From an uncultured Geobacter sp. (lineage in GTDB: Bacteria; Desulfobacterota; Desulfuromonadia; Geobacterales; CAIOGM01), in contig CAIUWK010000068.1 in the NCBI GenBank assembly GCA_903902855.1, forward strand, positions 3,363 through 67,362: a stretch of 64,000 nt of DNA, read 5' to 3'. Shown here piece by piece: positions 52,054 through 63,794 of the stretch. Within the stretch, counting starts at the first letter, position 1. Each line of letters opens with the position of its first letter. Under the pieces are notes generated by a model. That model had not been told where the DNA came from. It did not search any database and saw only the letters and a list, made by a program, of their open reading frames with translations. The position numbers and the translations under genes are program-made.

Positions 52054-52080
52054 TCGAACAGCTGCCCCCCCTCACCCTAA

Positions 52081-52103
52081 CCCTCCCCCACCAAGGGGGA
52101 GGG
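52081..52103 (+). terminator. hairpin after the LivK-like gene
   Basis: ccctccccc-accaa-gggggaggg 9-bp stem. Weak T-tract. Confidence 0.45.
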
Positions 52104-52121
52104 AACTTTGTAACGTAACTA

Positions 52122-52330
52122 TTCAGCTCAATGCAGATGCGCGACTATCGTAACCGCTCTTGTCCTCCCCCCTTCGGCTCCCTTCGACTTCGCTCAGGGC
52201 AGGTCGCTCAGGGCAGGCTTAGCCCAAGGGGAGGGAGTTTATACGAATTCCGTTGGTAGAACGTTCCCCCTCTTGAGACAAGAGGGGGACAGGGGGAGTT
52301 ATGATGACAAGGTTGCAGGTTAGCTGAAGT
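52122..52330 (+). repeat. structured intergenic repeat, copy A (with a ~50-nt internal insert)
   Basis: Aligns with 57866-58027: shared ttcagctcaatgcagatg...cccaaggggaggga...ccccctcttgagacaagaggggg...gggggagttatgatgac. Mini-ORF at 52301-52327. Confidence 0.85.
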
Positions 52331-52347
52331 AACACAGATACAAACGC

Positions 52348-52396
52348 TTCAACAGTTCAACGTTTCAACAGTTCAACGATTCAACGTTTCAACAGC
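52348..52396. repeat. 8-nt array TTCAACNN x6
   Basis: ttcaacag ttcaacgt ttcaacag ttcaacga ttcaacgt ttcaacag. Overlaps the EamA stop. Confidence 0.9.
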
Positions 52397-53277
52397 CTCC
52401 CCGGCAGCGAAACCAGGAGCACGCCACCCAGCACCAGGCTTCCTCCCACAAAGAACGAGAGACGTAACTGCTCCCCCAGGACGAGCCACCCCAGCAGGGA
52501 ACCGACCAGCGGCTGCAGAAAAAAGAAGACAGATCCGACCCCGGCCTCCACCAGCTGCATCCCCTTGTTCCAGAGGAAGAAGGCCCCGGCGGTGGAGATG
52601 ACCCCGATATAAAAGAGCGCCAGCCAGACCTCCGGCCGCTCCAGACCGCTCACCGGAAGATACTGCAGTTCGATGAGCATGGCCGGGGTGGTGAAGAGCC
52701 ACCCCCAGAAGATGGCGTAGGTGGTTATGACCAGCGGCGGATAGGTGGCGGCGGCCTTGCGAGCCAGAACGGAGAGGAGCGCCCAGGTGACTGCGGCCCC
52801 CACCAGGAAGAGATTGCCGGTCATGACCTCCCCTCCCCTGCTCCCCCCCTGGTCCCACCCCACGATGATCAGTACCCCCAGGGTGGCCAGGATAATGGAA
52901 AGGAGCTTGCGCGTGGTGATCCGCTCACCCAGCATGCTCCTGGCAAAGATGACGATAAAGGCCGGACTGGCGGCGGTGAGCACCGATCCCATATGAGCCG
53001 ATGAGAGCTTGGTGCCGATGAACTGACAGCCGATGGAGAGGAAGTACCCCACCACCCCGATGGTCATGAAGGTTTTCCAGTCACGGGAAAAGGGCTGTCT
53101 GAGACCGGTCCGGAGCAGCAGGAGCCAGAGGACGCTGAAGGCGATGAGGTAACGGAGCCAGACCAGGGTGAAGGGAGGGATGTAGTCAAGGAGAACCTTG
53201 CTGACCACGTAGAGCCCCCCCCAGATGGCGGCGGCTCCACTGAGGGCAAGGCAACCCGCCCAGTGCCGATTTTTCAT
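52381..53277 (-). CDS. EamA/DMT-family transporter
   Basis: ATG at 53277 (GAGGAG SD 10 nt upstream) gives a 298-aa polytopic protein. Confidence 0.75.
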   Translation of the reverse strand: MKNRHWAGCLALSGAAAIWGGLYVVSKVLLDYIPPFTLVWLRYLIAFSVLWLLLLRTGLRQPFSRDWKTFMTIGVVGYFLSIGCQFIGTKLSSAHMGSVLTAASPAFIVIFARSMLGERITTRKLLSIILATLGVLIIVGWDQGGSRGGEVMTGNLFLVGAAVTWALLSVLARKAAATYPPLVITTYAIFWGWLFTTPAMLIELQYLPVSGLERPEVWLALFYIGVISTAGAFFLWNKGMQLVEAGVGSVFFFLQPLVGSLLGWLVLGEQLRLSFFVGGSLVLGGVLLVSLPGRLLKR

Positions 53278-53437
53278 AATGCGCATGCTCCTCGGAAAAA
53301 TGAACTGCGCGCACTGTAGACGCCCCCCCCCGGTTTCACAAGTTGTAATTTTCTTAGACGAATCAGTTTGCACCCGATGTTTAAATCATGCTAAGTTCCC
53401 AGAACCTTACCGGTTACGTCACTCAAGAGGGGCCATC

Positions 53438-57771: not shown

Positions 57772-57865
57772 ACCTGAAAAAAATCAGTTAACCGCCGATA
57801 GACGCCGAAAAGTCAAAGAGTTGAGACTTATTTGAATCAGCCTGAAATATATGAATACGGATAAC

Positions 57866-58027
57866 TTCAGCTCAATGCAGATGTGCAACTATCGTAACCC
57901 CTCCTGTCCTCCCCTTAACCCAAGGGGAGGGACGTTTATGCGAATTCCGTTGGCAGAACGTTCCCCCTCTTGAGACAAGAGGGGGACAGGGGGAGTTATG
58001 ATGACCGGGTCGCAGAAGAGCTGAATT
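57866..58027 (+). repeat. structured intergenic repeat, copy B
   Basis: Same orientation as copy A. Two stable hairpins (gtcctcccctt/aaggggagggac and ccccctcttg/caagaggggg), then a GGGGGAG SD and mini-ORF at 57998-58024. Confidence 0.85.
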
Positions 58028-58060
58028 GTTTCCAGATTTTGAATGCGGAAAGGATCTATC

Positions 58061-60358: not shown

Positions 60359-63343
60359 ATGGAGAGAGCAGTGAACAACAAGATCATCGCTCGGGGGAAA
60401 GAATTTTTTTCCACCATTTCCGGAGAAAAGCCCTCCATTTTCAACAAGGGGGCCTGGATGGGCAAGGCCATGGAATGGAGCATGCAAAACGAGCAGTTCA
60501 AGATCCAGATGTTTCGCTTCGTGGATGTCTTCCCGGCCCTCACCAGCAGCAAGCTCCTCACCGAACATATCAGGGAGTATTTCGGTGATGAAAAGGAGAT
60601 GCCCCCCTTCCTTGCCACCGGGGCCAGGGTGGCGGGGATGTTCGGCTCCCTGGGAGGAGCGCTGCTGAACAAGGCTATCTCCACCAACATCAGGGAAATG
60701 GCCCGTCAGTTTATCGTGGGGGAGAACAGCAAAGAGGCGGTAAAAAACCTGGAACGACTCCGGAAGGACGGCTTCGCCGCCGTGGTGGACGTGCTGGGGG
60801 AGGCGACCCTTTCGGAAGAAGAAGCGGAGAGCTATGTGGCGACCTACCTGGAACTGCTGGAGGCGCTAAAGAGTGAACAAAAGAACTGGGGCGGACTCCC
60901 CGGCAAAGGTGGTGACGGTCAGCTGGATTGGGGGCATTCCCCCAAGGTAAACATCGCCGTGAAGCCCACTGCCCTCTACTGCCTGGCCAACCCCCAGGAT
61001 TTCGAGGGATCGGTTCTGGCCATCATGGCCCGGCTGGAGCGAATCCTGCTCAAGACCATGGAGCTCAACGGCTATCTCTGCATCGACATGGAATCCTACC
61101 GTCACAAGGAGATCATCCTGGAGGTGTACCGCCGGTTGCGCCTGCGCCACCGTGACTACCCGCACCTGGGAATCGTGCTCCAGTCCTACCTGCGCGACAC
61201 CGACCAGGACCTGGCAGAGCTGCTGGCCTGGGGACGTGACCACCAGCTGCAGCTCTCCATCCGTCTGGTTAAGGGGGCCTACTGGGATTACGAGACGGTG
61301 AAGGCCCGGCAGAACGATTGGGAGATTCCGGTCTGGACCATCAAGGCCGAATCCGACGCAGCCTTCGAACGCCATGCGCGGCTGATCCTGGAAAACCAGG
61401 AGATCTGTCACTTTGCCTGCGCCTCCCATAACATCCGGAGCATCTCGGCAGTGCTGGAGATGGCCAAGGAGCTGAATGTTCCGGAAGAGCGTTACGAATT
61501 TCAACTTCTCTACGGTATGGCAGAACCGGTGCGCAAGGGGATTCTCAAGATCGCCGGCCGGGTCCGCCTCTACTCCCCTTACGGCGACATGGTTCCCGGC
61601 ATGGGATATCTGGTCCGCCGCCTGCTGGAAAACACCGCTAACGAGTCGTTCCTCCGGCAGAGTTTCGCCCAGGACGCGGAGATCGAGCGGCTGCTGGAAG
61701 ATCCGGAGGATACCGCAAAGCGCCAGCGGGACGCACTCAAACCCCAGGGGGAAAAGGACGTCCTGGAAACTCTCCCCCGCTTCGAGAACATGGCCATGGT
61801 GGACTTCACCAGGGGGGACCATCGCGCCGCCTTTCCCGCCGCCATCGCCCGGGTCCGGACGGAGTTGGGCAAAACCTATCCGCTCTTCATCAACGGTCAG
61901 GAGATCGTCACCGGCGACACCATCCCCACGGTGAATCCTGCCAAGCCATCGGAACTGCTGGGGAACATCTGTCAGGCAGGCATCCCCCAGGTGGAGCAGG
62001 CCATTGCCGCGGCCAAGCGGGCCTTTCCGGCATGGCGGGATACCCTACCGGAAGAACGGGCCGCGTACCTGCTCAAGGCCGCCGCCATTGCCCGGAAACG
62101 GATCTTCCAACTCTGCGCCTGGCAGGTCCTTGAGATCGGCAAACAGTGGGACCAGGCCTATGGCGATGTGGCCGAAGCTATCGATTTCCTGGAATATTAC
62201 GCCAGGGAGATGAACCGGCTGGGGAAACCCCGGCGCATGGGACATGCTCCGGGTGAATTGAACCACTATTTTTACGAGCCCAAGGGGGTGGCGGCAATCA
62301 TCGCCCCCTGGAACTTCCCCCTGGCCATCAGCATGGGGATGGCGTCGGCGGCCATGGTCACCGGCAACCCGGTCATCTTCAAACCGTCGGCCCTCACCGG
62401 GATCATCGGTCACCACCTGGTGGAAATCTTCCGCGAGGCAGGTCTCCCCGCCGGAGTCTTCAACTTCACCCCGGGGCGCGGCGCCGTCATGGGAGATTTC
62501 CTGGTGGATCACCCGGACATCTCCCTCATCGCCTTCACCGGCTCCATGGAGGTCGGCCTCCGGATTGTTGAGCGGGCCGCCAGGGTCCATCCTGGCCAGC
62601 CCAACGTGAAGAAGATCATCGCGGAGATGGGGGGGAAGAACGCCGTCATTATTGACGACGATGCCGACCTGGACGAAGCGGTCCCCCACCTCCTCTACTC
62701 CGCCTTCGGTTTTCAGGGGCAGAAATGCTCGGCCTGCTCCCGGGTCATCGTGCTGGACGCGGTCTATGACCGTTTCATGGCGCGCCTCCTGGCCATGGCC
62801 AAGGCCACCAGCGTGGGTCCGTCGGAGAATCCCGGCCACTACATGGGGGCGGTGGCCGATGACAAGGCCATGAAGAGTATACTGGAGTATATCGAGATCG
62901 GCAGGAAGGAAGGGGAGGTTCTCTACATGAGTCCGGTTCCCCAGGGGGAAGGGTACTGGGTCCCCATGACCATCATCGGCGGCATTCGCCCGGAACATCG
63001 GCTGGCCCAGGAAGAGATCTTCGGTCCGGTGCTGGCGGTGATGCGGGCCAGGGATTTCAGTCAGGCCCTGGAGTGGGCCAACTCTACCCGCTTCGCCCTT
63101 ACCGGCGGCATCTTCAGCCGGTCACCGGAACATCTGGCCCGGGCGCGGCGCGAATTCCGGGTGGGAAATCTCTACATCAACCGTAACAACACCGGCGCCC
63201 TGGTGGAGCGTCAACCCTTCGGCGGCGCGCGCATGTCCGGGGTCGGCACCAAGGCCGGCGGACCGGATTATCTCCTGCACTTCATGGACCCGCGCGTGGT
63301 GACTGAAAACACCATGCGCCGGGGATTTGCGCCAACAGAGTAA
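60359..63343 (+). CDS. putA: bifunctional proline dehydrogenase / L-glutamate-gamma-semialdehyde dehydrogenase
   Basis: 994 aa. N-terminal PRODH barrel region and C-terminal ALDH domain (FTGS, EMGGKNA, FGFQGQKCSA catalytic Cys). No N-terminal DNA-binding domain. Confidence 0.85.
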   Translation: MERAVNNKIIARGKEFFSTISGEKPSIFNKGAWMGKAMEWSMQNEQFKIQMFRFVDVFPALTSSKLLTEHIREYFGDEKEMPPFLATGARVAGMFGSLGGALLNKAISTNIREMARQFIVGENSKEAVKNLERLRKDGFAAVVDVLGEATLSEEEAESYVATYLELLEALKSEQKNWGGLPGKGGDGQLDWGHSPKVNIAVKPTALYCLANPQDFEGSVLAIMARLERILLKTMELNGYLCIDMESYRHKEIILEVYRRLRLRHRDYPHLGIVLQSYLRDTDQDLAELLAWGRDHQLQLSIRLVKGAYWDYETVKARQNDWEIPVWTIKAESDAAFERHARLILENQEICHFACASHNIRSISAVLEMAKELNVPEERYEFQLLYGMAEPVRKGILKIAGRVRLYSPYGDMVPGMGYLVRRLLENTANESFLRQSFAQDAEIERLLEDPEDTAKRQRDALKPQGEKDVLETLPRFENMAMVDFTRGDHRAAFPAAIARVRTELGKTYPLFINGQEIVTGDTIPTVNPAKPSELLGNICQAGIPQVEQAIAAAKRAFPAWRDTLPEERAAYLLKAAAIARKRIFQLCAWQVLEIGKQWDQAYGDVAEAIDFLEYYAREMNRLGKPRRMGHAPGELNHYFYEPKGVAAIIAPWNFPLAISMGMASAAMVTGNPVIFKPSALTGIIGHHLVEIFREAGLPAGVFNFTPGRGAVMGDFLVDHPDISLIAFTGSMEVGLRIVERAARVHPGQPNVKKIIAEMGGKNAVIIDDDADLDEAVPHLLYSAFGFQGQKCSACSRVIVLDAVYDRFMARLLAMAKATSVGPSENPGHYMGAVADDKAMKSILEYIEIGRKEGEVLYMSPVPQGEGYWVPMTIIGGIRPEHRLAQEEIFGPVLAVMRARDFSQALEWANSTRFALTGGIFSRSPEHLARARREFRVGNLYINRNNTGALVERQPFGGARMSGVGTKAGGPDYLLHFMDPRVVTENTMRRGFAPTE

Positions 63344-63375: not shown

Positions 63376-63639
63376 CTAACAGGGAACCACGCGAATGATC
63401 GGCCTCTGTACGGCGTTGCAGGCGGGGAGCGGTTTCATGACAGCGCATTCCGCCGCCTGCAGCGCCTCAACCACGGCAAGAATGCCGGCGGGGAGCGACA
63501 GGCTCTTTCCGGCGGAGAGGAGATAATCCCGTCCGTCACCAGTGGTAACCCAGATCCTGCCGCTCACACAGCGCAGGTTGATACCATCCTTCGTGCAGTC
63601 CAACCGCACCACTTCTCCCCGTTCAAGACAACAGTCCAT
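63376..63639 (-). CDS. DUF2917-like small protein
   Basis: 87 aa. LRCVSGRIWVTTGDGRDYLLSAGKSL is DUF2917-like. Divergent from a MocR-type regulator. Confidence 0.5.
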   Translation of the reverse strand: MDCCLERGEVVRLDCTKDGINLRCVSGRIWVTTGDGRDYLLSAGKSLSLPAGILAVVEALQAAECAVMKPLPACNAVQRPIIRVVPC

Positions 63640-63794
63640 GAGTGATTCCTCCCGTCAGTGATGGTGACAGAGTACACCCTCTCTGCCGCAAAAAACAGAT
63701 ACAGAGAATCTGTTTTGTAACCATAACAGTTCCATGCTATACAGACTGTACCCATCAAAAAAGGGGACAACTGTACTGCATCAGGGGGTGCGGC

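Follow-up and report, generated by a model that had tools for sequence, protein, structure and literature searches.

What are the two similar stretches that lie on the same strand of an uncultured Geobacter sp., within the 64,000-nt piece of DNA analysed here (the window)? The original prediction described them as structured repeats and offered a MITE, an sRNA gene or a leader/attenuator element as explanations. The repeat pair was confirmed: copies A and B share a 49-nt block with 92% identity (52122-52170 and 57866-57914) and a second block of 106 nt with 87% identity (52223-52328 and 57920-58025). Each copy contains two GC-rich hairpins, GTCCTCCCCTT..AAGGGGAGGGAC and CCCCCTCTTG-AGA-CAAGAGGGGG, and has GGGGGAG four nucleotides ahead of ATGATG, which opens an 8-codon ORF ending in AGC TGA. 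The extra segment of copy A, estimated earlier at about 50 nt, measured 52 nt and carries TCGCTCAGGGCAGG twice (52190-52203 and 52204-52217). The boundaries had to be moved, the element extending 6–7 nt further to the left and 3–5 nt further to the right, to degenerate terminal inverted repeats (TIRs). The positions of all parts are given in Table 1. The RNA fold of copy B had an energy of -90.2 kcal/mol (z = -8.5 versus shuffles), which, together with some 30 loci in the genome, places the repeat pair far beyond chance.

Table 1 Parts of the two window copies, with positions counted from the first nucleotide of the window.
Feature	Position	Strand	Basis or remark
Copy A, whole element, 219 nt: shell, core and nested 52-nt insert	52115-52333	+	End-to-end alignment with full-length copies C106, C37, C8, C18 and C77
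Copy A, left TIR GTAACTATTCAGC, intact	52115-52127	+	Same 12-13 nt as the ends of IS66-family insertion sequences (G051:C321, G002:C220) and ISDge4
Copy A, conserved core: CGTAACC..TGTCC, hairpin 1, variable centre, hairpin 2, CAGGGGGAGTTATG	52149-52303	+	Columns of the core >90% conserved among 82 copies (23 own, 59 from relatives)
Copy A, hairpin 1, arms GTCCTCCCC / AAGGGGAGGGA, loop split by insert	52162-52236	+	
Copy A, nested 52-nt insert with TCGCTCAGGGCAGG twice; marks a subfamily	52171-52222	+	
Copy A, hairpin 2, CCCCCTCTTG-AGA-CAAGAGGGGG	52266-52288	+	
Copy A, 8-codon ORF MMTRLQVS, judged incidental	52301-52327	+	Start in right inverted-repeat arm of the core, stop in outer terminal repeat
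Copy A, right TIR GCTGAA--GTAAC	52323-52333	+	Differs from consensus GCTGAATAGTTAC by a 2-nt deletion and a single change
Copy B, whole element, 173 nt, without insert	57860-58032	+	Without counterpart at the orthologous site in G003:C282
Copy B, left TIR, degenerate, ATAAC--TTCAGC	57861-57871	+	
Copy B, conserved core	57893-58000	+	
Copy B, hairpin 1	57906-57932	+	
Copy B, hairpin 2	57963-57985	+	
Copy B, 8-codon ORF MMTGSQKS, judged incidental	57998-58024	+	
Copy B, right TIR, degenerate, GCTGAATTGTTTC	58020-58032	+	

The genome to which the window belongs (G000) is a 3.56-Mb draft of 113 contigs and 92.5% completeness. In it, blastn returned 33 matching pieces and three rounds of nhmmer returned 31 hit loci on 25 contigs; these 31 include the end of C37 and the start of C78, one locus assembled twice, and the family numbers about 30 copies. 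The copy-number check of the core against the whole genome thus gave about 30 copies, not two. Every locus matched the profile on both strands, which shows that the element is a large imperfect palindrome matching its own reverse complement, a property absent from the earlier description. The copies are 125-230 bp long, dispersed and intergenic, and have no conserved ORF; according to crude ORF and GC3 gene calls, they occupy tandem, convergent and divergent gene contexts in both orientations. Several are located at contig ends (C8, C23 with three tandem copies, C33, and C37/C78), indicating that the repeat breaks the assembly and that the copy count is a lower bound; the element accounts for several assembly breaks in the draft. 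The cluster at C23:12252-13141 comprises three copies of alternating orientation and the start of a fourth at the contig end, and may be a hot spot or an assembly collapse. Enlarged cassettes with cargo between the hairpins were not found in G000. Among related genomes, the core was present in 20 of 41, representing 11 of the 16 genera of the order, and was not found in the three genomes of genus g2.

The insert of copy A is shared with the copies on C18, C26 and C30, at C68:147887 and in G003:C64, and a shorter version occurs in two C77 copies. A 20-nt motif within it, CCCTTCGACTTCGCTCAGGG (window 52180-52199), also stands alone, outside the element, at a dozen or more dispersed sites (in G000, C107:3401, C97:1933, C74:40237, C62:9938, C77:4400, C65:11422, C45:42889/42928 and C37:6503), and represents a third small repeat, nested within the loop of hairpin 1.

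Alignment of full-length copies gave an element of about 174 bp made up of a shell and a core. The shell reads GTAACTATTCAGCTCAATGCAGATGCGCGACTATCG ... TGATGACCGGGTTGCAGGAGAGCTGAATAGTTAC, and the palindromic core consists, in order, of TAACCCCTCCTGTCC, hairpin 1 (CCTCCCCTT-loop-AAGGGGAGG), a variable centre, hairpin 2 (CCCCCTCTTG-AGA-CAAGAGGGGG) and CAGGGGGAGTTA. Full-length copies are bounded by 12-13-bp terminal inverted repeats, GTAACTAYTCAGC. The 12-mer GTAACTAYTCAG occurs exactly 30 times in G000, compared with 0 times for the reversed control, and the same ends bound a second G000 family with an interior of GCTGAAG heptamer arrays. For inverted end pairs 30-450 nt apart, the 8-bp flanks were at least 7/8 identical in 14 of 28 pairs versus 0 of 135 shifted controls. 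Core-type copies with such target duplications include C106 (AAAAACTC, 8/8) and C37/C78 (A[A/G]TTGCGG, 7/8); by eye, duplications were also seen at C18 (7/8) and at L066 of the same-genus genome G003 (CTTTATTT, 8/8). Copies A and B have damaged ends and no recognisable 8-bp target duplication; they are assigned to the family by aligning end to end with intact copies. An end motif within 75 nt (two mismatches or fewer) was lacking at 40 of 55 cores in relatives, suggesting that the core may also spread or persist alone. The smallest superfamily member among those observed was a 59-bp mini-element in another genome (G038:C1:796532-796590, L118), which is barely more than two GTAACTATTCAGC ends and has a 7/8 target duplication, [A/C]ATTGAT.

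A scan of 121 genomes of the order for the end motif yielded one long inverted pair, G051:C321:349-2050, in a genome of another family. It contains a 476-aa ORF whose stop lies inside the right end, and the protein is an IS66-family transposase (PF03050, E = 1.4e-44; NF033517, 280 bits with a cut-off of 180). A 480-aa homologue, 40% identical to this protein (NF033517, 301 bits), is encoded at C220:370-2281 in the same-genus genome G002, where the element lies between GTAACTACTCAC and CTGAGTAGTTAC with AATAATT on both flanks. These partner insertion sequences are 1.7-1.9 kb long, each with one transposase ORF, and share their ends with the element. ISDge4 of Deinococcus geothermalis, a single-ORF member of the ISBst12 group of the IS66 family that was observed to transpose, has ends GTGACTACTCAGCA / GTAACTGCTCAGCA and an 8-bp direct repeat (PMC12898284). 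The ends common to the G051 and G002 transposase elements and ISDge4 identify the shell as an ISBst12-type MITE shell.

No ISBst12-type transposase was found by tblastn in the G000 assembly (92.5% complete, 113 contigs), in which the only match was a 27%-identical classical IS66 fragment on C97. This classical IS66 was ruled out as the partner by its end, GTAAGCG. The fragment (C97:1-907), which lies at a contig end beside an integrase-like reading frame, encodes a truncated transposase of the classical IS66 family and has the typical GTAAGCG terminal repeat. Insertion sequences are often missing from draft assemblies. The complete genome G038 (5,136,364 bp) carries 20 exact end motifs, paired 47-175 nt apart, and no IS66-family transposase was found in it.

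The sites of both window copies are empty in relatives. In G003, the EamA stop codon, 11 nt and the ybaK ribosome-binding site follow one another at the site of copy B, where G000 has 290 nt including the copy. At the site of copy A, livK and livH are separated by 27 or 16 nt in G003 and G002, compared with 1373 nt including copy A in G000. Both G000 inserts exceed the size of the element, so that neither is a clean excision or insertion footprint. The intervening liv genes show synteny with those of G003 and G002, the differences being confined to the two spacers, indicating that A and B do not bracket a mobile block. The 1373-nt insert, as measured against these two same-genus genomes, corresponds to window positions 52054-53425, inside the liv operon. 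Its contents are a terminator-like hairpin (CCCTCCCCCACCAAGGGGGAGGG, ~52080-52103), then copy A, then a tandem array of 8-nt units TTCAACRK (52343-52395), and an EamA-family transporter gene on the minus strand (52381-53373; PF00892, E = 5.7e-49). Arrays resembling TTCAACRK were seen at many loci (C18, C47, C22, C35, C17 and C3), often adjoining the element or its heptamer-armed sibling.

The dispersed multicopy distribution, the TIRs common to IS66-family insertion sequences, the 8-bp duplications of intact copies and the empty orthologous sites bear out the first of the three options. The family consists of ISBst12-type MITEs, a kind already known, and both window repeats are very likely old, end-decayed copies of such a non-autonomous transposon (MITE) with IS66-family (ISBst12-group) ends. 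An ISBst12-type DDE transposase acting in trans would bind both ends and insert the element into intergenic DNA with an 8-bp target duplication; the ends and the duplication would then decay, as in copies A and B. The GGGGGAG-N4-ATGATG and AGCTGA segments are the right arms of two inverted repeats, the inner and the outer one. An intergenic palindrome widespread among Geobacterales is now tied to a transposase family (IS66, ISBst12 group). The element's one unusual feature is the slow evolution of its core, which is kept far better than the ends; simple neutral MITE decay does not predict this.

Glocal alignment of 82 copies from about 15 genomes (23 own, 59 from relatives) gave core columns that are 90-99% conserved and loops, centre and shell that are far less so, a contrast exaggerated by the ascertainment of copies through core similarity and by misalignment of the shell. 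Two orthologous copies, which allow a cleaner comparison, gave a similar result. In the pair G000:C30 / G003:C64, the element is 93.7% identical (148/158), exceeding the flanking coding DNA (87% and 81%; third codon positions alone, 80% and 72%) as well as the spacer next to it (74%). In the pair G000:C23 / G001:C124, the hairpin arms are ~100% identical and the centre differs by a 28-nt indel, compared with 78% for coding DNA and 51% for the spacer. At these two orthologous sites, evolution of the core is several times slower than that of adjacent third codon positions or neutral proxies, pointing to selection on the hairpins or homogenisation among copies. In both species of the first pair, a 71-aa minus-strand gene starts 46 nt downstream of the copy (G000 C30:24041-24217 and G003:C64), and the element is better conserved than the third codon positions of this adjoining gene.

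The double-hairpin core could accordingly be a selected DNA or RNA module riding in the MITE shell, either a REP-like structure that protects or terminates 3' ends or a protein-binding site, a tentative reading that may be additional to the MITE reading. It is favoured by the columns above 90% conservation in the 82 copies and by the orthologous copies that exceed their flanks in identity, but the search by core similarity inflates apparent conservation, and gene conversion among ~30 copies could yield the same pattern. The stems are invariant and consequently give no covariation. The + strand RNA is 16 kcal/mol more stable than that of the - strand, with conserved G:U positions, but about three inherited G:U positions account for this excess. 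In tandem gene contexts, nine copies are co-oriented and three opposite, a bias that is not significant (p ~0.07), with orientation calls for short forms resting on 1-5 bits; strand inference from 240-nt flanks in relatives was discarded as unreliable in GC-rich DNA, the flanks of copy B itself being miscalled. No sigma-70-like promoter or T-tract terminator signal beyond chance was found at the copies, and a terminating role would lack its T tract. Insertion of the core into the loops of older hairpins, or compensatory flanks, was rejected, as flank complementarity within copies was no higher than between copies (6.84 versus 6.71 of 12, p = 0.15).

The broader claim that ~75 core positions, comprising the two polypyrimidine/polypurine hairpins and the outer stem with outward-facing SD-like/ATG ends, form a module under purifying selection across Geobacter-like genera appears rather doubtful. 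If the core is selected, the IS66-type MITE shell spreads a useful structured cassette, for example an RNA 3'-end stabiliser, an insulator or a protein-binding site; and should its slow evolution be true selection, the elements would be domesticated parts of operon architecture and not merely selfish DNA.

With its two resembling GC-rich hairpins, inverted relative to each other on either side of a variable spacer, its sharply bounded conservation (TAAC...GTTA) and its many cores without IS66-type ends, the family also recalls a REP/REPIN-type element, in which two inverted REP hairpins are moved by a RAYT (Y1) tyrosine transposase. We consider this origin very unlikely, because Y1 transposases do not generate 8-bp duplications of the DDE type such as those of intact copies, the head is GTAAC/TAAC instead of GTAG, and the sole Y1_Tnp gene of G000 (PF01797; C82:1010-1968) is flanked by another inverted repeat, CTGGGGTCAGGCTT. 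The product of that gene is a 319-aa Y1 (IS200-like/RAYT-like) transposase.

The two remaining options of the original prediction, an sRNA gene and a leader/attenuator, fared poorly, and we regard a cis-regulatory leader (attenuator) or sRNA gene with a translated SD-ATGATG mini-ORF as an extremely improbable explanation of the element. That the element was not recognised as a known RNA family held up: a permissive-threshold Rfam scan gave chance-level matches only (21 bits for mir-532, whose threshold is 75, and a snoR113 hit at another place). An sRNA gene as such, which may still be present, gained no positive evidence, with neither an Rfam match nor covariation in the stems. For the leader speak the strong SD-like GGGGGAG 4 nt before ATG and the constant 8-codon length among long forms. 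Against it, the eight peptides of the long forms (MMTRLQVS, MMTGSQKS, MMTGVQER, MMIGLQRS, MMTVLQGS, MMTGLQGG, MMTELQEC and MITELTRT) differ by replacement changes, short forms lack the ORF, and the downstream genes are unrelated and stand in tandem, convergent and divergent contexts in both orientations. The ATGATG sits in the arm that pairs with ACTATCGTAAC, and the AGCTGA stop sits in the outer repeat and pairs with TTCAGCT. At 75 ATG-carrying ends from the own genome and relatives, at least 60 codons were open in the ATG frame in 19 cases versus 16 in frame +2, indicating that use of the ATG as a start codon is not systematic. The 8-codon ORF is a by-product of the inverted repeats and not a gene; with this false lead removed, annotation of the SD and ORF as a leader peptide or an sRNA gene should be avoided.

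One convincing case of start-codon donation was observed and counts in favour of the leader: the half-copy at C1:14135 gives both SD and ATG to a TlpA-like lipoprotein gene. This half-copy (C1:14092-14149) consists of hairpin 2 and GGGGGTTGTTATG, preceded by a GCTGAAG/GTTGAAG heptamer array, and the recipient gene encodes a 165-aa thioredoxin-like (TlpA-type) protein with a signal peptide. ATG donation as a general role was rejected: C7, C83 and C26 offer in-frame ATGs, but their genes probably have start codons further downstream, and no enrichment of the ATG frame was seen.

A simple local duplication bracketing the EamA-livHMGF-EamA block, suggested by two direct copies 5.7 kb apart, is refuted by the ~30 copies genome-wide and their occurrence in other genera, and synteny with G003 and G002 is kept across the intervening liv genes.

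We compared the ISBst12-type MITEs with known small repeats. Correia/NEMIS elements of Neisseria and REP/BIME elements of enterobacteria are likewise small intergenic palindromes that fold as RNA, and end-decayed copies look REP-like. However, Correia elements duplicate TA and REPs are moved by RAYT, and neither has IS66-type ends or 8-bp duplications. [quoted passage not shown] 2008, Genetics 179:2291). It belongs to the same order and is alike in its size of 178-235 bp, its very stable predicted folds of ~-98 to -130 kcal/mol and its many partial copies, whereas the element has 12-13-bp ends, an 8-bp duplication and a GC-rich core; going by its published description, Chunjie may be a different element. 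The published Chunjie direct repeat gave chance matches only in the genome contigs.

The multicopy sequences given with the genome papers on G. metallireducens, G. bemidjiensis and P. carbinolicus do not include that of the element. The G. bemidjiensis 'Palindromic sequences', an intergenic multicopy palindrome (Aklujkar et al. 2010, PMC2996986, Table S6 / Fig. S2), resemble the element in having two inverted polypyrimidine/polypurine hairpins (CCCCCTCCCCTTGACGGGAGGGGG) around a centre, but differ from it in sequence and have no reported IS66-type ends; they are nearer to relatives on C74 of G000 than to the element. These relatives (C74:61571-61668, 62060-62110 and 63574-63682) form a related palindrome family, CCCATCCCC..CCCTCCCCTTGAAGGGGAGGG..GGGGGATGGG, lie inside long ORFs by crude ORF calls and resemble the 'Palindromic sequences' consensus (PMC2996986, Table S6).

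The heptamer-armed MITEs of G000 (ends GTAACTACTCAGG, GCTGAAG arrays) have identical terminal repeats and 8-bp duplications (C10 CTTCCTTT, C26 AATTCAAC and C45 GACAACTG), but their interior consists of tandem 7-nt arrays and not of two GC hairpins. With respect to the MITEs and insertion sequences of the IS66-family ISBst12 group (ISDge4, PMC12898284; ISBst12, Egelseer et al. 2000), the element differs in that it has no transposase, its double-hairpin interior is unrelated to their interiors, and the partner insertion sequence is absent from the G000 assembly. It shares with this group the 12-13-bp ends (GTAACTAYTCAGC versus GTAACTGCTCAGCA in ISDge4), the 8-bp target duplication and partner insertion sequences that each carry one transposase ORF (449-480 aa).
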